Below, one piece after another: positions 20,363-54,126 of a stretch of DNA of 64,000 bases. Under the pieces are notes generated by a model. That model saw nothing but the letters and a program-made list of their open reading frames with translations, did no database searches and was not told where the DNA came from. The translations under genes were made by a program, and so were the position numbers. Source of the DNA: Scenedesmus sp. PABB004 (taxonomy: Eukaryota); NCBI GenBank assembly GCA_014905635.1, contig JABVCE010000014.1, positions 558,001 to 622,000 of the forward strand. Reading direction: 5' to 3'. Within the stretch, counting starts at the first letter, position 1. Each line of letters starts with the position of its first letter.

Positions 20363-21035
20363 TCAGGCGCCCATCTGCTCCGCCTGCTCGATCTGCATGT
20401 AGACGCCCTCGCTGATGAGCGGGATCTCGCAGTACCAGCCCCTGGGTTTTAGGGGGGTCAGGGCAACGGCGGTTCAGGGCAGCGGCGGCGGCGCGGCGGC
20501 AGGGCGGCGGCGCAGTGTGCGGGCGCACAGCGGGGCGTGGGGTCCCAGGGGCGAGGGGGCGGCAGCGCTGGCGCGGGCGCCACGCCCGCGACGGCCGCGG
20601 GTCTGCTGCCGCGTCGCCACGCGCCAGAGAAGGGCGGCAGCGCAGTAGCAGACCCGCGGCCGCCGCCGCGCGGCGGCGCAGCGACGGCCGCCCGCGCGCC
20701 CGCGCGGCGCACAACCGCTGGCAGCGACGGCGCGGCCAAACAACGACCGCCGCCAGGCGCGAGCAAACAACGCGCCCTGACCAACCAACCGCCAGCCCCT
20801 GTAGGGCCGCGTGCTCACATGAAGCAGAAGAAGAGGCAGTAGGCGACGAGGAGGAAGACAAACCAGAACATGAGCGCGTAGAAGAGGTCGCTCCAGGGCG
20901 TCCACAGCACGCCAAAGGGCAGGTTCTCCTCGACGACGATGAGGATCATCGCCACGATGTCCAGCATCACGCCCTGGGGGGGAGCGCGTGTGCGTGTGCG
21001 TGTGCGTGTGCGTGTGCGTGTGCGTGTGCGTGTGC

Positions 21036-21098
<63 letters not shown>

Positions 21099-22593
21099 CG
21101 TGGGAGGGTGCGCGCGGGGGAGGCGGGCGGCGCAGGCGGCGCAGAGCCTGCGCGCCCCGCGGCCCGCGCGCCCGCAGCCTGCACGCCGCCCGCCGCCCGC
21201 CGCCGGGGTGCACCTAAGCCCTGGGCCTCCCTAAACCCTGGCCCCCCTGGGCCCCCCGCCGCGGCCGCCGCCCCGCGCGCGCGCCCGCCACGCCGCGCGC
21301 CGCGCACGCACCATCATGATGTGGTACCGCGCGACGTGCGGGATCTTCTTGTTGCGCACGATGCCGAGGTACGTGCCGAAGAAGATGATGAGCGGCGCCC
21401 ACTCGTGGATGTAGAACCAGTGCTCAAACGGCTCTGGTGTGGGCGGGCGCGTGCGGGGCGCGTGGGGGGCGTGAGGGTGGGTGGGTGGGTGTGGTGCGGT
21501 GGTGGTGGGTGGGCGAGTGGGTCGGGGTGGGGGAGGCAGCGGCGCGTGGCAGCGCGCGGCAGGATCGTCACAGCGCTGCAGCAGCACCGCCGCCGGCGCG
21601 GCGTGGAGTGTGGAGTGTAACGGCCCTGCCCCGCGCCGGCCGCGCACCGGTGAAGTACTCTGTCCAGGCGAAGACTGGGAAGCGCTCGATGAAGTAGACG
21701 GTCTTCTCGGTCACGTCCACCCAGGGCAGCATGTAGAGGATCGCGGCGCACAGCTTCCACGGCCACGACATGCCGCCCTCGTTGCGGCCTGGCGCGTGGG
21801 CGTGCGCGTGCGCGGGCGCGGCGATTGGGCGGAGAGTGGGCGGCGGGCGGCGGGTGGGCGGTGATTGGGCGGCGCGGGGCGGCGCGGGCGCGGCCGCTGC
21901 CGCGGCGTGGCCGCCGCCGGTGCACGGCCCCGTGCGGCGCGGCCGCTGCTGCCGCCGCAGCGCTGCTACGTCCGCCCGCCCGCCGGTGCGCACCAAACTT
22001 CCAGTCCTTCTTTGCCTCGTCCTCCTCCTCGCCGCCCGCTGCCGCGTCGCCGCCCTGCTTCGCGACCAGCGTCAGCTGCGGCGGCGGCGGCGGCGGCGGC
22101 AACGGGGACGTGAGAGGGGCCGCCGCGCCGCGGCGCCGCGCGGGCGGCTGCCGGCGGGGGGCGCAGCACGCAGGCGGCGCCGGCCGCTGCGCGGCCGGCG
22201 GCCGAGCGCGCGCCCCCGCGCGCCCCCGCGCGCGGGGCCGCAAGGTAACCCCGCGCGCCCGAGGCCGCCCCGGTCCGCGCCCCGCCGCCCCGGCCCCCGC
22301 GCGGCCGCGCCGCCGCCCGCAGCCGCCGCCGCTGCTGCGCACCTTTCGCCGGCTCGGCCGCTGCAGCTGCCTGCTGCTGCGTCTGCTGCCCAGGCCTGCG
22401 GATTCGCGGCGCGGTGCGGGTGAGGGCCCCGGCGGGTCGTCGCCGGCGGTGCGCTCGCCCCGGGGGCCGCACCTGCTGCCTGCGATCCCCGCAGCAGCGC
22501 TGCTGCCGGCCGCAGCGGCGCGCGTGCCGGGCCGGCCGGCCGGCACTGCGCCGCGGCCGCCAGGCCCGGCCGGGCGCCCAGCGCGGCGGCCAT
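20363..22593 (-). CDS. TIC20: Tic20-family chloroplast inner-envelope import channel
   Basis: Transit-peptide-like N-terminus, then WPWKLCAAILYMLPW, IFFGTYLGIVRNKKIPHVARYHIMMGVMLDI and GWYCEIPLISEGVYMQI. Confidence 0.85.
20988..21095. repeat. (GTGTGC)n/(GT)n microsatellite in a Tic20 intron
   Basis: Directly visible compound repeat. Confidence 0.95.
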
Positions 22594-23196
22594 GCTGCGC
22601 CGCGCCGCCCGCCCGCTGCTGCTCCCGGGCTGCTGCCGCCGCTGGGGGCGCGGGCACGGTGCGCGCGATGGACGGGAGGGTTGCGGTGGATCGGGCGAGC
22701 GCCGTGCGGGGCCGGCGCGCTCGAATGCGCAAGCCAGGCGCGCGGAACTGCTCTTCGTGTTCGGGCCCCCGCGGCACAGGCGCGGGGCTCGCTCGTTCAC
22801 GTTTCACTCTCGCTTCAGCACCCCGGCACGGCGATCGTCCAGGCCCGCGCTCAACAAGCCGCCGCCGCTGCGCGCTGAGCCCGCGCCGAGCCCGCGCGCG
22901 CGACGGGCGCACAGCGCGCCGCGCCGCCGCCGCCCGCAAGCCCACGCCGAGCTCGCTGCGCTGCCGTGCTCGGCTGGACCCGATCACGATTTATGCAGCG
23001 AGCTCGCCGAGCTCGCGGCCAGCGGCGGTCCGCGCTCGGCGGTCAGCGGCGGCGCGCAGCAGTGCGCGCTTGGCCGCACGGCGCGGCGGGGCGGACCGCG
23101 CGCACCCGCCGCGGCCGCCGCCTCGCGGCAGCGCTGCAGCATGGCCGGGGCGCCACCACGGGCGTGCGCGCGGCGTGCCGGGCAAGCGGGCGCTTG

Positions 23197-24140
23197 CCCT
23201 CGTGCGCGTGTGCACGCGCGCCGCCGGCACGGGCGCTGCGGAAGGCGCAGCCCTGCCGGCATGTCGATGCCCTCGATGCCACTTTCACATCAAGCACTTC
23301 CACAAGCCAGCAGGGCTGGGCCTTCCTCGGCGCCGGCGGTCGTGTGCACCGCGCAGGGAGCCAGTCGACCTGCGGCGAGACGACGACCCACCAGCGCGTG
23401 GCCGCCCACCCCGCGCCGATCTGCGCGACCCCGTGCCGAGGCCCTCGACCCTGGCGACGCGCGCGCCGCCGGCGCTCGGGTGCGTCACGTCCCGCAGCTG
23501 GTCGGTCACGGCAGCTGATCGGCCGCGTCGATGACCAGCTGCGGGGGTGAAGCACCCGAGCACCGGCGGCGGCGGCGCTGAGCGCCCGCGCGCCGGCGCG
23601 CATGCTGTCGGCGAGGGCCCCTCTGTGCGGCGACCGCGCCGCGGCCCGGCGACTCGCAGACAAACGCGACGCGGACGCCCGTGTTTGTGTGCGAATCACA
23701 GGGCTGCGGCGTGGGCACCGCGAAGGCCCGCCCGATGCGGCGGCCATCGCCGCGGGGCTGGCGGCGCTGAGCTCCCGCAGCGCCGCGCCGCCGAGGCCCG
23801 TCGGCCTCCGCCGCGCGGGAGCAGGCGCCGGCGGGGCGCCGGCGGGCGCTGCAGCGCCCAGCCGACCGGCGGCAGGCGCGTCAGCTGACCGGCGGCGGTC
23901 GAGCCGCGCGGCGCCGCGTGCTGCGCTGCGCTGCGCGGCGCGCTGCAGCGCGGCCGGCGGCGGCGCGGCGCGCCGGTGCACGTGACGCGCGCCGCGCGGC
24001 GAGCTTGCCGCAGCCGCGCCTGGTCCCAAATGTTGTGCGCGACGCCCAGGTGGTGGCCCTTGTCCGGCGCCATGTTGAAGAATCCGGAAAAACTGCCGTT
24101 CTGGATTTTTCAACATAGCGCGGGAGAAGGGCCACCACCT
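23197..24140. ncRNA. Putative cluster of four pre-miRNA-like hairpins
   Basis: Long imperfect inverted repeats at about 23197-23358, 23464-23571, 23627-23721 and 24048-24140, in a region with no convincing CDS. The miRNA identity is an inference. Confidence 0.5.
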
Positions 24141-24658
24141 CCGTGAGCGCGGCCGCCTCCCACGATGGGCTTCGTCCGTTGACCGGGCTATGGCGCCCTC
24201 CTGCGGGCGGGGCAGGCGGGGCGGCGGCGCGGCGCGGAGCAGGCGGATGCGGTCGCGCAGCAGCGGGCGCGCAGCAACGGCGGCGCGCTCCGCGGCCCCG
24301 CGCGCGCGCGGCGGCGGCCGGGCCTGCGCGCGGGCGTGCCGGGAGCCTGGGCGCGACGTTAAAGCGCCAGGCGAGGCCGCCGCAGCGGCGCGGCAGGCGC
24401 CCCACGGCGCTGGCCGCAGGGCGCGCGCGCCGCCGCTGCTGCGCGCGTTCGCCTCGCCTGAGGTCGGCCAGGGCTCGGCGAGGGCGGACGGGCGGCAGCG
24501 GCGTGCGAGAGTGGCCTCGGCGGGTGGGGGCGACGGGAGTGCGCGGCGCGCGCCGCCGCTGTGACGAGCGGCCGCCCGCCTCCCGGCGTCGGAGGGCAGC
24601 AGCGAGGCCGGCCTGACGGCTCGTGACTCTCTCGTTTCACTCGCACACGCGCGCGATC

Positions 24659-27600
24659 TCAGCAGCCCGGCACGGCGACCGCCCAGGCGCCGCGGCCCGC
24701 GCTCGCGACGCCGCCGCCGCTGCCGCGCAGCGCCGCCGAGCCCGCCAGCGTGACGGGCGCGCAGGGCGGCGCCGCCGCCGCGCCGCGCACCGACGCAAAC
24801 GCGGGCGCCGGCGCCGCCGCGGCCGCGGCCGGCAGCGGCCCGACGCGCAGCGTGTAGCGCAGCTCCGCCGCGCCGCACAGCTCCGCCGGCAGCGGGCCGA
24901 CCGGCTCGAGCACCGGCTGCGGAAGGTCAACCTCGCTCGCCGGCGGCGTGCCGGGCGCGCTCGCGTTGGCGCCCGCGACCGCCGCGCCGGTCGGGGTGAG
25001 GACGAGCTTGAACGAGCTCGTGACCGCGACGCAGCGGTCCACCTCCAGCGGCGGCGCGTCCGCGAGCACGACCGGCGACGGCGGCGACTGCACGACGACG
25101 CCGGCCGCGCCCGCGCCCGCCGCGCCCGCAGCGGCGCCCGCCGTGGCGGCGCCCGGCGCCGACGCGTTGCCGCTCGCGTTGCCGGGCGCGGCGGCGAGCG
25201 CGAGCGGCGGCGCCGCCGCCGCCGGCGCCGCGTCGCCGGGCAGCGGCGCGGTCGCGTTGGCGAAGACCACGACCGCCGGCGCGGAGGCGAGGTCGATGCC
25301 GTCGAATGAGAACGCGCACGTCGCGGGCAGCTCCACCGCGCCGCCGCCGGGGCCGGCGGCCTCGCAGCCGCCGCCCGTGAAGTTGCCCCGCAGCGAGCCG
25401 CCGCACGGCAGCAGCGCAAACACGCCCACCCCGCGCGCGCGGGTGGGCGCGCCTTCGCCGTCGCCCGGCGCGAGGAGCAGGCTGCCGGACAGCCGGCCGG
25501 TCGCCGGCGCCGCGCGCTTGGAGTGCTTGGCGACGAGCACGATGCTGGTGGAGGCCAGCCCGGGGGCGAGCTCAATGGTGGTGCCGTTGCCGCCCGCCAG
25601 CGCGGGCACCGGCGCACCGCCGGCGCCCGGCGGCGCGCCGACCGGCTCCAGCGCGAGGCGCGACGTCCACACGTAGCGCGTGACGACCTGCCCCGCCAGC
25701 CCGCTGAGCGAGAGCACGACCGGCGGGCCGCTCCACGTGAAGTTGGCCGCCGCGTCGGCGCCCGCGCCGGGGTCGGCCGCGCCGCCGCCCGCTCCTGCGC
25801 CGCCCGCCCCGGCACCGCCCGCCCCGGCGCCGCCCGCCCCGGCGCCGCCTGCACCGCCAGCACCAGCGCCGCCTGCACCGCCAGCACCGCCAGCGCCGCC
25901 TGCACCGCCAGCACCACCAGCGCCGCCTGCGCCGGCGTCGCCGTCGTCAACAGCGTACGGGTCATCGGCCCCCGGGTCGGCGTCGGCGTCGCCGGGCGCG
26001 CCCCCGGCCGGCGGCGGGGCGCCAGCGGGCGGCGGCGCGCCCGGGTCTGGGCGCGCCGCCCGGTCGGCGGCGGCGCGCCCGCGGCAGGCGTGCCGGCCTG
26101 CATGAACGCCGTTGACTGCAGGCTGGCCACCGTGGTGGTGCCGTCACCGCTCGGCGCTACAGCTCCGCCAGAGCCGCCGGCGGCCGCGTCGGATGCGCCC
26201 GCGTCGCCGGCGGCGCCTGCGTCGTCCGCTGGCGCATCGCCGGCCGCGTCGCCAGCGCCTGCGCCGTCCGCTGGCGCGCCACCGGCCGCGTCGCCCGCGC
26301 CTGCGTCGCCGCCCGCTGGCGCGCCGCCGCCCGCGCCGCCCGCGCCTGCGTCGTCCGCTGGCGCGCCGCCGCCCGCGCTGCCCGCCGGCGCGCCGCCGCC
26401 CGCGCTGCCCGCCGGCGCGCCGCCGCCCCCACCGCCCGCGCCGGCGTCGCCAGCTGGCGTGCCGCCGCCTGCGCCGGCCGCACCGGCGTCGCCTCCCGCG
26501 CCGCCCGCGTCGGCCGCGCCGCCCGCGCCGGCGTCGCCGCCGCCGGGGGCGCCGCGCCGACGGCGGCGCCGGGCGTGGCGCAGTCGCCGCTGATGGTGAT
26601 GCCGCTCGGCACGTTGATCACGGCCGGGCTCAGCCGGCCCGCGCCCGTCCAGCCGTCGTTGTCCGGCAGCACCGCGCCCACGCAGTGCACCGCGTAGGCG
26701 CCACACTGCAGGCGCGTGTACCCCGCCGCGGGCGCCATGACGGCCACCTGCTTGACCGGCTCCGTCGCGCCGCACACGCGCACGCAGCGCGCGCCGCCGC
26801 CGTCGAGCGTCGTGCCGTTGGGCCCTGCGGCCGCGAGCGCGGCGGCCTCGGCGCTGCCGTTGAGCGGAAGCACGTCCGCGAGCACGACGCCCGACGAGAG
26901 CTGCGCGCACGCGCCGACCGCCGCCTGGCGCAGCCCGCCCGGCGCGGTGCCGTTGCCGCCGGCGCCGCCGCCGGGGACAAAGCTGAACGCCGCCGGCACG
27001 CTCAGCACGTCGGCCGTCGCGCCGCCGGCGGCGTCGAGCACCACCTCTGCCGTCGCGGCCACGCTGCCGACGAGGGCGATGAGCGACTCGTCGGCGGGCG
27101 AGGCGGCGAGCTTGAGCTCGAACGTGCAGTTGGTGCGGCGCGACGGCATGAGCTGCACCTGCCCCGCCGCGTTGGAGCCGCGGCAGTCCGCGACCGCCGT
27201 GACGCTGCGCACGCGCGCGCCGACGCCGCTCGTGGCGGTGGCCGTCACCGTCACGCCCCGCACGGTCAGCAGCCCGCCGCCGGGCGGGTTGCCGAGCCGC
27301 ACCACGCCCGTGACGAGCTGCGCGGTCACGCCGGGGTCGCGCTCTGCGCGCAGCCAGCAGCCGAGCTCGACCGCGTCGCTGGCGTTGTTGCGCTCCGCGA
27401 CGGGCGCCGCCGAGAGCGACCAGCTGTAACTCGTCAGCAGCGTGGGCGACGCCGACAGCACCGCGACGCGCAGCGCCGGCGCCGGCGCCGCCCCTGCCGC
27501 CGCCACCGCCGCCGCCGCCGCCGCGCGGGCGCGGGCGTCGCGGCCGGCGCCGGCCCCGCCGCCGCCGGCGGCGCGGGCGTCGCGGCCGGCGCAGGCCCCG

Positions 27601-29433
27601 CCGCCGGCGACGGCACCGCCGGCACCGGGCCGGCGCTCGCGTCGGCGCTCGGGTCGAGCGGCAGCGGCGCCGCCTGGGCGGCCGACGCAAAGCGCAGCCC
27701 CGCGGCAGCGGCGGGCGGCGGCAGCTGCATGCCCCGCCGCCCGCCCGCCGGCCGCGTGTCGGGCTCGGCCGCGAGCTCCACCGACTGGAAGCTCGGCGCG
27801 CCGCGCGGCGGCGCCGGCCGCGCCGCGGCCGGCGGCTGCGGCGCGGCCGCCGGCCGCGCCTTGGCCGCCTCGGGGACCGCCGCCGCCGGCGCGCGCGCGG
27901 CGCCGCTGCCGGCCGGGGGCGGCGGGCAGATGACCTGTAGGTAGGCGTAGGTGCCCAGCGTGGCGACAGGCTGCGAGCCGTCCACGTACGCGGCCGCGGC
28001 CGTGCTCTGCACCTCGTACGTGCCGCACGCCGCAGGCAGCAGCGGGCCAAAGACCATGCCGTACGAAAAGGTGCGGCTGGCGCAGATGCGGCGCGGCGGG
28101 TCGGTGCCCGCGGGCTTGCCGTTGAGGCCCATCGGCGGGCGGTCGCCCGTGATCTGGGGAATGGGCCACCGGAAGTCGCTGCCGCCGCGCGACGGCGCCG
28201 AGAGCTGGCGCAGGCCGCGGCGGCGGCGCGCGGCGCGCGCGGCCGCGCGGCGCGCGGCGCCCGCGCCCGCGAGGCGCCGGCTCCACCTGGGCGCGCCGGG
28301 CGGGGGCGGCGCCGGCGGCGGCGCGCGGGCGGGCGTGAGGGACGGCGCGCGGCGGCTGCGGCGCGCGGCGCCGCCGCGTGCGTGTGCGGCCGCGCGACAG
28401 CCCGTGTGCGGGCGCGCACCAATCGTCGCTTGGCATGTCTGCGGAGGCGATGCCGGCGTTGAACCCCGGCGCCGCGTCGACGACCGCGCTCGGCGTCGGC
28501 AGCGTCGGCTCGGTCCGCGGCGGGCCGAGCGTGGACGAGGTGACGTCGTTCACGGCGAAGAGCTGGCTCGTCGACACGGGGCCCGCCGCCGCCGCGCCGG
28601 CGCGGTCGCTGTAGCGGTTGACGATGAAGCTGCCGTCGGTGACCTCCACGCAGTCGCCCACGCTCTGCGACACGCACGCGGCCGGCGCGGCGGCGGCGCC
28701 GGCCGCGGCCGGCGCCGCGGCGCCGCCGGCGCAGCCGGCAAAGGAGAAGGGCACCGCCTCGGCCGCGACGCGGCCCTGCGAGGTCGAGAGGAAGCCGACG
28801 AGGTTGCCGGCCCCCGGGTCGGCGTCGAGCGCTACAGTGAACGCGCACGAGACGCTCTCGCCCGGCGCGAGCGCGTAGCTCCGCGCGGGCAGGCCCTTGC
28901 ACGGCGGCGACGCGGGCGTGGTGCCGGCGTAGAGCGTGACGGCCGAGAGGGTGAGCACGTTGCTGCCAGAGGGGTTGGTGATCTCCAGCGACCCGGACAG
29001 CACGTACTGGCGCGACGCGAGCGACTTGGTGTAGCTCAGCGTGTAGCCTGGCGGGCCGGGCGGCGGCGCGCGGCGCGGCTGCGAGTGAGCGGGCCAGCGG
29101 CGGGCGCGGGCGCGGGCCGGGCGGCGGGCGGGCGCGGGCGCGCGGCGCTCGCGCACCGAGCTGCTTGCGCTCGCGGCCGTCGGCCGTGATGGCGACGCCG
29201 CTCGCCGACGACGCGCGCGAGAGCGTCCAGTTGTACGTGGACACGGTGGTGGCCTTGACGCCGCTGATGAAGAACTTGGGCGGCACGTAGGGGTTGGCCG
29301 CGGTCGCCGGCGCCGCGGGCGCGGCCTGCGCCGCGGCGCCGCGGGCCGACGCGGCGAGCGCCAGCGCCACCGCAAGCAGCGTAAGCGCTGTGGCGGGGGA
29401 GCGGGACGGGGCAGGGTCAAGCGGGCGTTGCAT
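24659..29433 (-). CDS. Large secreted Ala/Gly/Pro-rich protein with three copies of a Cys-containing beta-rich domain; apparent single-base frameshifts
   Basis: Signal-peptide-like ALTLLAVALALAASARGAAAQ. The three domains begin TYNWTLS, SYSWSLS and RYVWTSR, each with a C-x-F motif and FSF. Frame switches near 27525, 26560 and 26050 have no splice signals. Confidence 0.7.
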
Positions 29434-37950: not shown

Positions 37951-39583
37951 GCCCGAGCCCGAGCCCGCGGCGGCCAGGGCGGGGCGCGGGCGCGCCCGGG
38001 CGGGCGGCGCGGCCAGGCGCGGGTGGGAGGCGAGCGGGGTGCGCGCGCGCTGGCGGCGGCTGTGAGGCCTGGCGGCGGGGGCGGCGCCTGCGGCAGCCTG
38101 GAGGACTGACTGACTGCGGCTGTCTCTTGACGATGACGACGAAGAGTGAGGTCTGGTGGAGCTTTGACCGCGCGGGCGTGGGGGCCTGACTGACTGCGCG
38201 CGCTCTCTGAGTTGGCGAGGCGAGCCCCGACTGTAACGCGCGCCTGGCGGTCGGTCGAGTGCCTTTACAGGCCAGCAACGGCTGCGCCGCGCGGCCAGTC
38301 GAAGCCGCCACGCATCAGCCGACCTCGGCGCCTGTGCGGCGCACCGGTCAGGTCGATTCGCGGGGTGCGGCTGCCCAGCCGTTGCCGCGTGGGCGGCAGC
38401 ACCTGCAGCCAATTGGCAACCTGCAGCACACTCGGTCAGTCGCTGGGAGCGCGCTCGATCAACCAAGCGCACGCGCAGCCTGCGCCGGCGGCCCCTCTGC
38501 ACAGAGGGGCGCGCCGGGTTCGCCGCCTTGAGGGCTGGCTGGAGGAGGAGGGGCAGTGCGTGTGACTGGGGGCCGACCCGCCGCCCGAAACAATCGATCT
38601 CAAGCCATGAAGGGGAGGAGAGGAAGGCCTGCCTGAGCTGCACTGACTGCACTCAAACAATAAACCAACTCGTCTGGGGGCCTTGGTTCTGATCGCGAAC
38701 GATGGGGGATGGGAGGCACACTGGGCCGCGCGCCGCCGGCGCGCACAAGCCGGTGGCGGCAACTTGCTTTGAAAGCATTGAGGCATGGGAGTCAAATTCT
38801 AACCGAGCGAGCCGGGCGCCCGTTGCCCGGCTTGATTGGTTGTGCAGGGGGCGCGCGGCGCGCGCGCGCCCGGCGGCGGGCAAGGCCGCTTCGCTCGGGC
38901 GCGGGCCGGCGGCCCCCGGGATCACAGGAGTGGGGAGAGGGAGGAGTTCAGGCTGGCCGCGCAAATGCGCGGCCAGTGCATGTGGCGGTTGCTGCGCCGG
39001 CGGCAGCAAGCTGTGTGCACAGCTTGCCGCCGCCGCGCAAAGTTCTTGTGTGTGCAACACGCTGTGGCCCCAGACACAGGGCACAACAACAGCTCGAGTG
39101 CGCGGCCAATCTGCGCGCGCCCGGCCGGTGCACGCCGGGCGTGCCGTGCGCGCGCGCTGGCGCGCCTCCCGCCAGCTGCGCGGCGCGCACAGTACAGTGA
39201 GGCGCGCGGCGCGCCTCACTGAGGCACACACACTCCAACAGCAGACGCCCTCAGCCGGCGGCGGCGGGCGGGCAGCGCCCGCCCGCACGCTCGCAGCAGC
39301 AGGGGGCTAAAAACAGCGACCTCCGGCATGGCAGAGTGACGCGAGGCGCCCCTGCAGGGGGCGGATCACATGCCGGCGGCCGCGCGGAACGGCTCCCGCC
39401 CAACAGCCGTGCACGACACACGCTCTCCCCGAGGTCCCTGTACCGCGCGCGCTGCCCCAATCGGGCCGCGCAGCGAACAGAGCCCCGCCCTGAGGGCGGA
39501 GGCCCCGGCCTGCTGCTCACGCCGGCGCGCGCAGCAGGCGCGCCGGGCGCCGCCGCCCGGCGCCGCGCAGGCGGCGTCGCCGC

Positions 39584-42500: not shown

Positions 42501-44300
42501 CGGTGCGGGGGCCGCTCACGAGCGCCATGCCACCCAGGCGGGAGGGCTTGCCCCCCGCCGCCGCGGGCGCCGCGGCGCCGCCCTCGGCGCCGCCCGCCAG
42601 CAGTGCCGCCGCGCCGCGGCGGCCGCCGCCGAGCGGCACGGCCTTGGCCTTGAAGGCCGGCTGCGGCGCCTCGACCACCGCCGCGCCGGCGCCCGCGGGC
42701 GCGGGCGCGGACGCGCCGCCGCGGCGCTTGCCGGCGGCGGCGCCGCCGGGCTGCGACGCCGCCGACGCCGCCTTGCGCCGCGCCGCGGTGGGCGCGCGCG
42801 CGGCGAGGCGCGCCGTCACGTCGGCAAGCTGCTGCTTGAAGCGGGCCTCGATGGTCGCCTTGCGCTCCGCGCGCCGCGCGTCTAGCCGCGCCTGCGCGGC
42901 CGCGAGGGCCGCCTCGGCGCGGCCCGCGCTCGCGGCGGTGCGGTTGGCGGCGCGGCTCGCGGCCGTGACCGTCGCGCGCGCGCTGAGGCTCGCGGGCGCG
43001 ACGCTGGCGGAGGCGACCGCGGCCGCCTCGGCGGCCTTGGCCGCGACCGCCGCGTCGCGCGCGCGCGAGAGCGCGGCCTTGTGCGACTCGCTGATGCTGC
43101 TGGCGGCCTCCAGCTTCTTCGCGGCCGCCTCAGCGCGCGCCGCCTCGAGGCGCGCGGCCTTTGCGGCCACCGCCGCGGCGTACTCTGCATCGGCGGCCGC
43201 CTGCAGCTCCGCAACGCGCGCGGTCAGCGCCTCGCTGCGGTTGCGCGGCGCCGCGGCGCCCTCGGCCGGCGCCGTCGCGTTGGCGGGCTGCTGCTCCGTC
43301 GTCGCGTTGGCGGGCTGCAGCTCCGTCACATTGGCGGGCTGCAGCTCGGTCGTCGCGTTGGCGGGCTGCAGCTCCGTCGTCGCGTTGGCGGGCTCCTGCT
43401 CCGTCGCGTTGGCGGGCTGCAGCGGCGCCGCCGCGTCGGCGGGCTGCTCCATCGTGGCGGCGGGCGGCTGCTCCGCCGCAAGCTGCTCACTCTGCTGCTG
43501 CTGCTGCTGCTGCGCCTCCGCGGGCGCCGGCTGCTCCGGCTGCAGCTGCTGCTGCTCCTCCGCCGGCTGCTCCTGCAGCAGGCGGCGGCCGTCGTAGGTG
43601 GCGCCGTTCTCGGCCACGAAGCGCGTGTGCACGGGGCCCCAGTACTCGTTGATCGTCGGCGCCAGCTTGCGCACGTAGCCGTGGCCCGGCTTGCACACTG
43701 CGGGCGGACGGCGCGCGCGCGCGGGTGAGCAGCGCGGCGCGGGCGGCGCGGGCGTCCGCCCCCCCCCCCCCCCCCCCCCCGGCTGGCGTGCGTTGTCAGC
43801 AGGAGCAGGGATGCGAGATCATACAGGTCCCGGGGGGCTGGGGGGACCGGGGGGGGGGGCCTGGCCTGGCTGGCCTGGCCGCTGCACGCCGCTGCCGCTG
43901 ATGACCAGGCGCGCCCGCCGGTGACTCAGCCTCCCCGCGCGCCGGCGCTGCCCCGGGGCCTCTGTCGCGGCGCGGGCCATCGATAGCGGCGCCGCGACGG
44001 GCCGCGGGACCGGCTCCCGCGCCGCGCCGCGAACCGGAGCAGAAGCGGTCCCGGTCACTCACCGCAGGCGCCGGCTGAGAGCGCGAAACCTTGCGGTCCA
44101 TCGCGCGCGCAGGCGGTGCAGAGCGTCGAGCTGGCGCCCGGCGCGCGGGGCGCGCCGGACGTCGCGCACGCGACGCAGCCTGTCGCGGTGCAGCTGCCGC
44201 TGCTGGCCGCCCACAGCGGGGCGTTGGCCGAGCCCGGCGCCGCGGCGGCTGCCAGGATCAGGCCCAGCAGCCACGCGGCCAGGGCGAGGCGGCTGCCCAT
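39584..44300 (-). CDS. Large secreted/surface protein: Cys-rich N-terminus, tandem repeats, coiled coil, Cys-rich GCC2/GCC3-like module, Pro linker, seven cadherin/Big_9-like Ig repeats
   Basis: Signal peptide MGSRLALAAWLLGLILAAAAA; CMPCPPGS..CTPCPWGT; seven ~95-aa repeats of the form (Y/F)xP...C...DxFxYxVxDxYG...VxVxC. Confidence 0.8.
43272..43420 (-). repeat. Coding minisatellite (24-27 nt units, QPANATTEL)
   Basis: About five or six degenerate copies of gtcgcgttggcgggctgc. Each encodes an N-x-T sequon. Confidence 0.85.
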
Positions 44301-50853: not shown

Positions 50854-52705
50854 TCACGCCGGGGGGTCCACCGCGGCGGCGGCCGCCTGCCGGAACGCGC
50901 CGGCGAGGCGCGCGCCGCCCGCCGTGCCGCGGCCGCCGCGCAGCAACTCGTGCAGCGTGAGCGCGCAGATGTTGCGCGCCGCGTTGTCGTCGCGCGGCGC
51001 GACGACCGTGCACCCGGGGCACTGCACCAGACCATAGATGCCCCGCAGCTTCTCCACGCGCGCCCCGCAAACAGAGCAGGTGATGCTGGTCCGGTGCTCG
51101 TCCATGAGCACCGCGGCGACGCGCCGGCGCGCGTAGTACGTGCGCAGCAGCGCCAGCAGCGCCTGCCGCGGCGGCCCCGGCCCCGAGATGCAGCCCCCCA
51201 TGCCCAGGCTGGCGTCCCCGATGCCCAGCACCACCGCGGGCAGGTCGGCGGGCAGGCGCGCGTGCTGCCGGACGCGCCCGCGCACAAAGACCCGGCCGTA
51301 TGCAGTCAACTGAATCGCCGCATGCAGCGCGCGCTGCTTCAGCCCGTGCTTCCGCAGCCGCCACGCACACTCTGCACGGCACGCAAGCAAGCTATATGCG
51401 AATTCATTGTCCAACACATGATGCACCCGGCCGTTGCGCCACGCCCCGGCGGCGGCGACGCTCGTGCCCGAGTAGGCAGGGACGCGGTTCAGGCAGGCAT
51501 GCACGCAGTCGCCGCCGCCGGGCGGGCGGCGTTCATACCGCCCCGGCCGCCCCGGCCGCCCCTGCTGCCACAGGCGGTGCCGCTCGATCCCGCGCGAGTC
51601 GCGGTGCGCGGCGGTCTTTATTCTAATGATGCGCTCCGCCTCGTAGCGGCGGCCGTGGTCGCCGCGGTGGCGCGGCGCGTTGGGGCAGCGCCGCTGCGCG
51701 ATGCGGCGGTGCGCGACGCGCGTGCAGCCCGGGCCCTGCCGCCAAGTCGCGGCGCATATCATGCGCGCCCGGCCCGGGTCGATTCCGACTATGCGCACGC
51801 CCGCGTGCACGGCCGCGGCCGCGCCGTGCAGCGCGTGCCCCGGCGGCAGGCCATCCACGCCGCGCAGCTCGCACGGGTCGAGCGGCAGCGCGTCGAGCGC
51901 CGCCTCGTCGGCCACGCCGTGCGGCGCCAGCGCGTCGCAGAGCAGCCGCCGCGCTGCCGCCGCGCCCGCGCGGTGCTCTGCCGCGCGCTGCGCCGCCTTG
52001 GCGGCGCGCGACTGCTGGCCGTGGCGCGGGGCGGGGTCGGCGGCGCCCTCGACCCGCACGCGCACGTGCAGCGCCGCCAGATCAAACGTCACAGAGCCCG
52101 CGAAGCGCGTGTTGGCGTGCAGCACGCCGCGCGCGCGCCCGGGGTGCCGGCCAAAATCAAAATATGAGTCCCAGATGGGATCATAATCCCCATGGGGCGG
52201 CGGCGGCGCGGGCGGCGGGGCGCCTCCGCCCGGCGGGGCGGTGTTGGGCGGCGGCGGCTGGCCTGCCGGCTGGCCCCCCGCGAGCGCCTTGGCCTGACGC
52301 GCGCGCAGCGCAGCATCCAGCGCCTGCATGCCCGAGGTGGACAGGTGCAGGTGCTGGGTGCCGTACTTGGGCACCGGCGCCAGCGTGAAGGCGCGCCGCT
52401 TGGGCAGCGCCACGCGCGCGGCGTGCCGCGAGCGCAGGGCGCGCAGCACCTTGCACGCGCCCGCGACCGCGATGAGCGCGTCGGGGTGCTGCCCCGCGCC
52501 GCCGGCGCGCTGCGGCGGCTGCGCGCCGCCGCTGCGGCCGCCGGGCGGCGCCGGCGCCGCCGGCGGCGGCCCCGCGCCGGCGGCGGTCGCCGCAGCCAGC
52601 ACCGCCTCGAGCGTCGCGCACACCGCGCGGCGCCAGCCGGCCGGGACATCGCGACGCAGCGCCGCGACAGCCGCCGCCGCCTCCTCGAGCGTGCGCGGCG
52701 CGGGC

Positions 52706-52738
<33 letters not shown>

Positions 52739-53859
52739 GCCGGCGGCGCCGGCGCAGCGCGACCCTGCGCGGCCGCTGTGGCCGCCAGGTAGCCGCGCGC
52801 GGCCGCCAGGTAGCCGCGCGCGGCCGCCAGGTAGCCGCGCGCGGCCGCCAGTCGGGCGCCGCAGTCGCCCAGCAGACGCGCGCCCTGGTCGCGCGCGGCG
52901 CGCGCGGCGTCCGCCGCGCGGCGGGCCGCGTCCGCGTCAGGCGCCGCCGCCGCGCCGTGCGGTCGCGCGAGCCGCCGCTGGTGCTGCACGAGCGCCGCGT
53001 CGCGCTCGTGGTGCTGCACCACGGCAGCCTGCCACTCCGCCTCCACGGCTGCGAGGTCGGCCTCCACCGTCGCGTCGCCGGCGGCGGTCAGCGCGGCCAG
53101 CGCCAGCCGCAGCCGCTCCGCGGCCGCGGCCGGCAGCGCCGCGCCCGGCCCCTGGCCCGGCGCCGCGCCCGGGCCCTGGCCCGGCGCCGCGCCCGGCGCG
53201 GCGCCTTGCCCCCGGGCGCGGAGCAGCCGCGCCTCCGCGACGGCCAGCCGGCGCCGGAGCGCCGCCGCGTGCGCGTCCTTGCGCTGCAGGCGGCGCAGCC
53301 GGTTGCGCGCGTGGTCGGGCGGGCCCGTCATACCTCCCTGGACCGCAGCGCGGCTGGCGACCTCCCGCTGCAGGTCCTTGAGGGGTTCCTTGCGCAGACG
53401 CACGGCCGCCTCGCTGGCATCCACGGCGGCGCGCAGGCGCTGCACCGCCGCCTCGAGCTTGCCCAGCTCGCGCGCCCGCTGCAGCTCGCGCAGGCGCGGC
53501 TCCTGGGCGCTGGCGTCCAGCAGCTTGGGGGGCGCCGGCGGACGCTGGCCGCGGCTGCGGCTGCTGCTGCTGCCGCTGCCGCTGCCGCTGCGCCCGCTGC
53601 TGCCGTCCAGCGCCTCTGCCAGCGACTCGACGGCCGCCGCGAGCGCGCCGGCCGACGCGGGCTCCGGGGCCGCCCCGAGCGACGCGGCGCGGCGCAGCAT
53701 CGCCTCCAGCGCCGGCCGCGCCGCCGCGCCCTGCTGGGCTGCCAGCGAGTCCGCGAGCCGCGGCGCGCAGGCAGCAAACATGTGCTGTTGGCCGAGCATG
53801 ACGACAAAGTCGCGCGCGACGCGGCGCGACTTTGTCGTCATGCTCGGCCAACAGCACAT
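50854..53859 (-). CDS. Fanzor (eukaryotic TnpB-family, Fanzor1-like) RNA-guided endonuclease, intronless; start codon uncertain
   Basis: RuvC-I IVGIDPG, RuvC-II LMDEHRTS, Zn finger CSVC..CPGC, RuvC-III RDDNAARNI. Upstream FTLAPVP..LHLS, WDSYF and RFAGSVTFD resemble Fanzor1 blocks. Confidence 0.88.
52780..52851 (-). repeat. 21-nt tandem repeat x3.4 inside the Fanzor ORF (AAARGYL)
   Basis: Exact copies of ggccgccaggtagccgcgcgc start at 52780, 52801 and 52822. Confidence 0.95.
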
Positions 53860-53860
53860 G
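53779..53860. repeat. Perfect 37-bp inverted repeat with 8-nt spacer
   Basis: 53779-53815 (catgtgctgttggccgagcatgacgacaaagtcgcgc) is the exact reverse complement of 53824-53860. Confidence 0.97.
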
Positions 53861-54126
53861 CGCCATGGCGTCGGCGTCGCCCTCCCGGTACGCCAGGCCC
53901 TCGAGCCCTCGAGCTGCCGGGCCAGGCTCCCGCCCTGCTGGCTCGAGCTGCTCCGAGCGGGCCCTCGAGCTCAATCGGGCGTCAGCGCGTTCCAGCCCGC
54001 CCAGCGACGGCAGGCGCTCGCGGCGGCGGCGCGCGGCACACTGCGCAGCGCGCGCCGGCACACGTGAGCGCGCGGGCGCTCTGTTGTGCGTCCTCCTGCG
54101 CGGCCTCCCACCGCCCCGGCAGCCGC

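Follow-up and report, generated by a model that had tools for sequence, protein, structure and literature searches.

A cluster of unrelated fold-backs downstream of a coding gene in a GC-rich chlorophyte: candidate substrates of a Dicer-like enzyme

What is the origin, and what might be the role, of several long and mutually unrelated fold-backs lying side by side in the gap between two genes of a green alga? An earlier note on this DNA had reported four of them at positions 23197..24140 of a 64-kb stretch (hereafter the window, that is, the whole stretch of DNA analysed) and had proposed that a single non-coding precursor carries them as a polycistronic miRNA locus. The sequence itself and RNA folding placed four fold-backs at these positions, and an inverted-repeat search reported two of them (HP1 and HP4). 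The cluster is, in addition, larger than first reported, with one strong fold-back (HP0) and one weak fold-back (HP5) outside the coordinates given then. The six structures are the following:

22915-23035, no strand assigned: HP0, the fifth fold-back, outside the first-reported coordinates and abutting a decayed copy of a gene end
23197-23345, no strand assigned: HP1, with core arms 23232-23278 and 23288-23334 (47 nt, 79% complementary) and a 9-nt loop
23465-23575, no strand assigned: HP2, a fold-back of ~46 base pairs
23640-23705, no strand assigned: HP3, a short fold-back of ~24-25 base pairs
24040-24148, no strand assigned: HP4, with arms 24048-24089 and 24099-24140 (42 nt, 88% complementary) and a 9-nt loop
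24345-24465, no strand assigned: HP5, the sixth fold-back, weak and marginal, in very GC-rich DNA

The arms had been described as 40-70 nt long with short loops, which is accurate for structures such as HP1 and HP4 but not for the much shorter HP3. HP1 bears an extra, separate small hairpin of 8 bp at its 5' edge, and the GC content drops locally to 0.58-0.60 at HP4. Arm-to-arm mismatches in the folds of HP1-HP4 are mostly symmetric 1x1 substitutions. We found the four hairpins to be mutually unrelated, as had been claimed: pairwise blastn-short comparisons returned only GC-rich words of 7-11 nt, all with E values of at least 0.015. They constitute neither a tandem repeat nor a CRISPR array, with no sequence common to the hairpins and only short GC microsatellites detected between them by TRF.

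The RNA minimum free energy (MFE) of each structure was compared, on each strand, with those of 200 dinucleotide-preserving shuffles. In all eight folds of HP1-HP4, none of the 200 shuffles was as stable, the z-scores on the plus and minus strands being -5.2 and -6.6 for HP1, -9.3 and -10.3 for HP2, -3.3 and -4.3 for HP3, and -11.8 and -9.9 for HP4. HP0 reached -91.2 kcal/mol on the minus strand (z -6.5) and -74.4 on the plus strand (z -4.6), with 0/200 shuffles as good on either strand; for HP5, the minus-strand z-score was -3.05 and two of the 200 shuffles did as well. A global minus-strand fold of positions 23180-24160 retained all of HP1-HP4, with a z-score of -11.4 (20 shuffles).

We also scanned the whole 64-kb window using the MFE of 110-nt segments, corrected for GC by regression, and recorded the local minima with z < -2. 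On the plus strand, five out of 26 minima fell inside 23231-24351, where 0.5 were expected (Poisson P 1.7e-4, a post hoc value since the region had been picked for its hairpins), and the three strongest minima of the window were located at 53761, 24031, and 23461. Among the 23 minus-strand minima, those ranked 2-5 were located at 24041, 23461, 23231, and 22921. HP4 and HP2 occupy ranks 2 and 3 in the window on both strands, and HP0 rank 5 of 23 on the minus strand. Another apparent hairpin of these scans, at 43270-43400 (z -8.2 on the plus strand), was rejected: it is a 27-nt tandem repeat in a coding frame, which mimics a hairpin in MFE scans, and not a fold-back. A census of ungapped inverted repeats counted 14 in the window versus 0-2 in each of eight Markov-1 controls, and three of these 14 lie within the fold-back cluster (binomial P 9e-4). 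The census and the binomial result together indicate a general excess of fold-backs in this DNA, with a strong concentration at the cluster; their clustering exceeds chance.

The window has a GC content of 0.68-0.85 in every 1-kb bin, mostly ~0.80, and its coding exons reach GC3 values of up to 1.00, which makes it an unusually GC-rich chlorophyte nuclear region. It encodes eukaryotic domains (MBD, FYRC, and WSD, identified with Pfam) as well as a Tic20-like exon, and its RNase Z ORF has its best homologues in Myrmecia, Chlamydomonas, Tetraselmis, Volvox, and Parachlorella (41-52% identity), in agreement with the Protein Atlas. Judged by these sequence similarities, the source organism is a chlorophyte green alga, with no close relative in the protein libraries.

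The genes and gene remnants surrounding the fold-backs are all on the minus strand:

24659-25640, minus strand: last coding exon and stop of gene X (stop codon 24659-24661, where the translation ends; GC3 0.95-0.99 in windows starting at 24681-25521)
22786-22945, minus strand: decayed direct duplicate of the gene X end (the final ~40 codons, the stop, and ~30 nt of flank on the 3' side), interrupted by an in-frame stop
within 21571-22071, minus strand: further exon of the Tic20-like gene, recognized from translations
21312-21407, minus strand: exon of the Tic20-like gene (PF16166 TIC20, E 1.5e-7, residues 102-133 of ORF 21234-21710)

Between the two genes, the absence of any credible coding sequence that the earlier note had remarked upon was corroborated by codon-phase GC, whose range did not exceed 0.25 in any 240-nt window starting at 21801-24561; the hairpin region is thus embedded in ~2.7 kb without coding periodicity. 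None of the 31 stop-to-stop ORFs of at least 40 aa overlapping 22800-24660 had a Pfam match, and ARAGORN found no tRNA in the hairpin region. A derivation of the HP4 arms from a coding exon, suggested by a coding-like minus-strand stretch of 26 aa that reads away from the loop, was dropped as unsupported; this peptide had no Pfam match and no homologue (34 word-sharing candidates, none with E <= 10).

On the higher side of the gap, codon-phase GC revealed a strong coding signal of minus-strand order in windows starting from 24681 to about 29100. The corresponding gene X (24662-29200, minus strand) is rich in Gly, Ala, and Pro, with many N-x-S/T motifs and no Pfam domain, and its C-terminal 370 aa had a single weak match (E 4e-5) among 1.84 billion representative proteins. 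It is therefore an orphan gene. On the lower side, small minus-strand exons were detected by codon-phase GC between about 16500 and 21800; the Tic20-like exon had no usable match in the Protein Atlas. The hairpins therefore occupy a gap of ~2-2.7 kb downstream of gene X and upstream of the Tic20-like gene, both of which are on the minus strand. They span 194-1744 nt below the gene X stop on that same strand, the first being HP5 at 194 nt, followed by HP4 at 519 nt. We found no TGTAA-type poly(A) signal on the minus strand below gene X, the only minus-strand TGTAA motifs of the window being at 38265 and 44458, so that this search marks no transcript end for gene X.

The decayed copy of the gene X end sets the other limit of the hairpin-rich stretch. 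Self-blast aligned 24659-24786 with 22815-22937 (79% over 132 nt, E 4e-23), and the alignment runs ~30 nt past the gene X stop (22786-22945 versus 24626-24795). The lower copy sits 1.84 kb downstream of the original and contains a premature stop, which identifies it as a decaying duplicate. The ~1.7 kb between both copies is where the hairpins accumulate, the six fold-backs covering ~40% of it. Divergence between hairpin arms amounts to 12-21%, as compared with 21% for the gene-end duplicate; arm divergence in the range of that of the duplicate fits a shared rearrangement-type origin, or neutral decay after one rearrangement.

Our preferred explanation, which we hold tentatively, is that the hairpins lie in the 3' UTR or a read-through tail of gene X, are cut by a Dicer-like enzyme, and were born by inverted duplication. 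Five or six inverted duplications, independent of one another, would make up the locus, whose DNA would most likely be transcribed as a long 3' UTR or read-through tail of gene X and, less likely, as a separate non-coding RNA. In the transcript, each repeat would fold into a near-perfect stem of 24-48 bp that a Dicer-like RNase III could cut. This cutting may release young, lineage-specific small RNAs, either siRNA-like or imprecise miRNA-like; as a second consequence, the host transcript would be cleaved in cis and thereby lose stability. We infer the transcription of the region and its strand, as well as the cutting by Dicer and any regulatory effect, by analogy with known algal hairpins and from several observations made on the locus. 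The fold-backs are clustered and more stable than shuffled sequences on both strands, they occur in a stretch without coding signal or protein family, both neighbouring genes are on the minus strand with hairpins beginning 194-519 nt below the gene X stop, and the host is a chlorophyte. The minus-strand fold has the more negative z-score in four of the five strong hairpins, the exception being HP4. Two other strong fold-backs of the window, at 20565-20685 and 38940-39070, likewise lie just downstream of minus-strand coding exons.

Published work on Chlamydomonas provides the closest parallel. Its DCL3 enzyme cleaves stem-loops that reside in 3' UTRs, in introns, or in non-coding RNAs. The outcome is siRNAs more often than miRNAs, and in some cases no stable small RNA results; host mRNAs of these hairpins are reported to rise in dcl3 mutants (Valli et al. 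2016, PMC4817775). Bona fide miRNAs are described as a less common product of long near-perfect Chlamydomonas stems than heterogeneous, siRNA-like reads (PMC4817775, PMC5511227). As in Chlamydomonas reinhardtii, we deal here with a green alga and with lineage-specific, long, near-perfect stem-loops in or next to the non-coding parts of protein-coding transcripts; the dual outcome described for DCL3 hairpins, namely small-RNA production together with cutting of the host mRNA in cis, is what we would predict for the present locus. Unlike the cases described in that study, which have one structure per UTR, this locus has five or six unrelated structures in a row; it also differs in belonging to a genome of ~80% GC and in being known from its DNA sequence alone. 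In structure and position, the fold-back locus appears to fit the DCL3-type pattern of UTR hairpins. Algal miRNAs are reported to be young, not conserved even within Volvocaceae, and often derived from fairly long, imprecisely processed hairpins (PMC5511227), so missing homologues do not count against the Dicer-substrate explanation.

The requirements listed for canonical miRNAs include a single-hairpin precursor and a mature RNA that pairs with the opposite arm with no more than four mismatches (PMC5511227). Our fold-backs are single stem-loops on both strands, with 0/200 shuffles as stable, and every hairpin, on either strand, contains 21-nt duplex windows in which unpaired bases number four or fewer and asymmetry does not exceed 2 nt. 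Such windows were as many as those examined (8-32 of 8-32 per arm), which makes such duplexes possible without being proof of their production. No Dicer or Argonaute domain appeared in the Pfam scans of the ORFs of the 64-kb window.

Drosophila hpRNA loci are an example of hairpin-RNA genes born by inverted duplication. The arms at the present locus, 79-88% complementary and differing mainly by point substitutions, are as expected soon after such an event. Young miRNA and hairpin-RNA genes have been proposed to arise in this way (PMC5511227); unlike what is expected of them, we found here neither a parent nor a target gene. A search of the arm 21-mers against the rest of the window for cis targets, allowing up to three mismatches, gave only three GC-rich end matches for each of HP1 and HP2.

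Several observations weigh against the Dicer-substrate explanation. The association of hairpins with the downstream side of genes is drawn from three loci only. For HP4, the best hairpin, the plus strand gives the better fold, and gene X is followed by no minus-strand TGTAA. G-U wobbles favour neither strand, as had been said of them: HP1-HP4 contain nine on the plus strand and 12 on the minus strand (binomial P 0.66), or 11 and 16, respectively, when HP0 is included, HP1 alone having one on the plus and five on the minus strand. With no strand preference in these counts, there is no real signal of selection on the RNA fold. Moreover, the similarity between arm divergence and the 21% of the gene-end duplicate also fits neutral decay after one rearrangement.

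It is indeed possible that the whole stretch is inert debris. Either a single complex event or a few repairs by template switching or fold-back may have duplicated the gene end directly and short segments invertedly, the resulting palindromes then decaying neutrally with no small RNA of consequence. The position of the decayed gene X copy, which bounds the hairpin stretch, speaks for such an origin, as do the matching divergence values, the prevalence of 1x1 substitutions among arm mismatches, the lack of strand bias in G-U pairs, and the general excess of inverted repeats in the window (14 versus 0-2 in controls). The identical 9-nt spacers of HP1 and HP4 also look like the product of one mechanism. 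However, long near-perfect stems, if transcribed in a cell that bears Dicer, would be cut whatever their origin; inert debris therefore needs a silent region or an absent pathway. It would also require repeated events at one spot, given that four of the five strongest minus-strand fold-backs of the 64 kb lie within 1.2 kb. Finally, the arms are no more diverged than the gene-end duplicate, even though one of the duplicate copies is under coding constraint.

Transposon remnants, that is, small palindromic non-autonomous elements (MITEs or foldback elements) embedded in a landing zone between genes, seem to us an unlikely source of the cluster. Intergenic clustering of MITE-type insertions is common, and the size (63-150 nt) and palindromic build of the fold-backs fit these elements, which are also short palindromic intergenic DNA. 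Yet the four elements are unrelated and no transposase-like ORF accompanies them. Among the matches listed by self-blast, which comprised their own inverted matches and GC-rich noise, none was a second copy of HP1-HP4 in the 64-kb window; at about one copy per 64 kb per family, zero extra copies for all four would have a probability of ~0.02. Neither did we find convincing target-site duplications: there were none at the HP4 repeat ends, and the other hairpins were flanked, with a tolerance of +/-4 nt, only by GC-only words of 4-7 nt, which are as expected in 80% GC DNA. Searches with sequence patterns in viral, metagenome, and prokaryote contigs added no relative. The earlier note had suggested comparing the arms with algal viruses; in viral contigs, HP4, HP2, HP1, and HP3 had 0, 0, 3, and 0 loci, and we rejected the three loci with the HP1 pattern as chance, the match being only 17-18 nt long. 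One metagenome locus with the HP4 pattern was discarded on similar grounds (an exact match of 24 nt, with no extension, in coding-like DNA of ~60% GC). Prokaryote genome contigs contained no HP4 pattern and, for the C-terminus of gene X, 592 pattern matches with 0 relatives.

The proposal from which this work started, taken strictly, supposes one dedicated non-coding primary transcript giving rise to several discrete miRNA/miRNA* pairs, polycistronic and non-homologous. We consider it improbable. The fold-backs have the structure that it calls for, and all 12 sub-threshold matches of a permissive Rfam search were to miRNA-precursor models, although these reflect generic hairpin shape only: at gathering thresholds Rfam gave no match in the window, and the best model, mir-9223, scored 32 bits against a threshold of 53. 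Polycistronic precursors of non-homologous miRNAs are known in plants (Merchan et al. 2009, PMC2812943) and resemble the present locus in that several unrelated hairpins within ~1 kb could share one transcript. What sets the plant precursors apart is that the report cited defined them through the sequences of mature miRNAs and through target functions in common; compared with theirs, the stems of the present locus have greater length and fewer imperfections. More generally, stems of 40-48 bp, near-perfect, exceed typical miRNA precursors in length and perfection, and the G-U pairs of five hairpins (11 versus 16) favour no strand. The location immediately behind a coding gene likewise argues against a dedicated non-coding gene; with the hairpins directly downstream of gene X on the same strand, the term 'non-coding precursor' is itself uncertain. 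The non-coding region, the chlorophyte host, and the 21-nt duplex windows are compatible with the miRNA claim without being specific to it.

An extended form of the Dicer-substrate explanation would make the locus an animal-style polycistronic small-RNA cluster of a unicellular alga: the tail of a coding gene would contain, on one transcript, five or six hairpins that are unrelated to each other, serve as substrates of Dicer, and also control the host mRNA and shield the Tic20-like gene from read-through; we think it quite doubtful that all of this applies together. A purely structural role at the DNA level or during transcription, either as a cruciform-prone spacer or as a fail-safe termination or insulation zone against read-through from gene X into the Tic20-like gene, is in keeping with two co-directional genes ~2-2.7 kb apart whose gap is filled by hairpins, but it is pure conjecture to which no specific feature points, and we deem it very improbable.

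Should the Dicer-substrate explanation hold, with the region expressed and cut, a single algal transcript would bear several small-RNA hairpins without mutual relation, in a compact and natural example. The 'UTR hairpin' mechanism of the DCL3 type would then extend past Chlamydomonas to a chlorophyte that is distant from it and extremely rich in GC, and the locus would offer a case for studying the birth of small-RNA genes from inverted duplications. If the region is not expressed, it would be an ordinary patch of rearrangement debris. At present, the locus is a candidate for checking against RNA data and not a discovery.

Other features of the window deserve mention. The stop codon 20815-20817, which closes a Tic20-like transmembrane exon and is a putative gene end, is followed 130-250 nt further down by the fold-back at 20565-20685 (minus-strand z -5.6). 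Two near-perfect hairpins, one with an 11-bp and one with a ~21-bp stem, occupy 38940-39070 (plus-strand z -3.1, minus-strand z -5.7); a gene encoding Big_9 Ig domains on the minus strand has its low end ~0.5 kb above them. Nearby, TGTAA occurs once per strand, 33 nt apart, at 38232 (plus) and 38265 (minus), an arrangement suggestive of two convergent genes whose 3' ends face each other. An open frame of 1038 codons on the minus strand (50857-53970, GC3 0.92) encodes a Cas12f1-like TNB domain (Pfam E 1.4e-9) and has a weak match to the solved 'TnpB-like protein L79' (E 0.008); both similarities make it a green-algal gene of the Fanzor/TnpB-like kind. The strongest fold-back of the window (z -12), a perfect 37-bp palindrome with an 8-nt loop, lies at 53779-53860, close to the 5' end of this frame.
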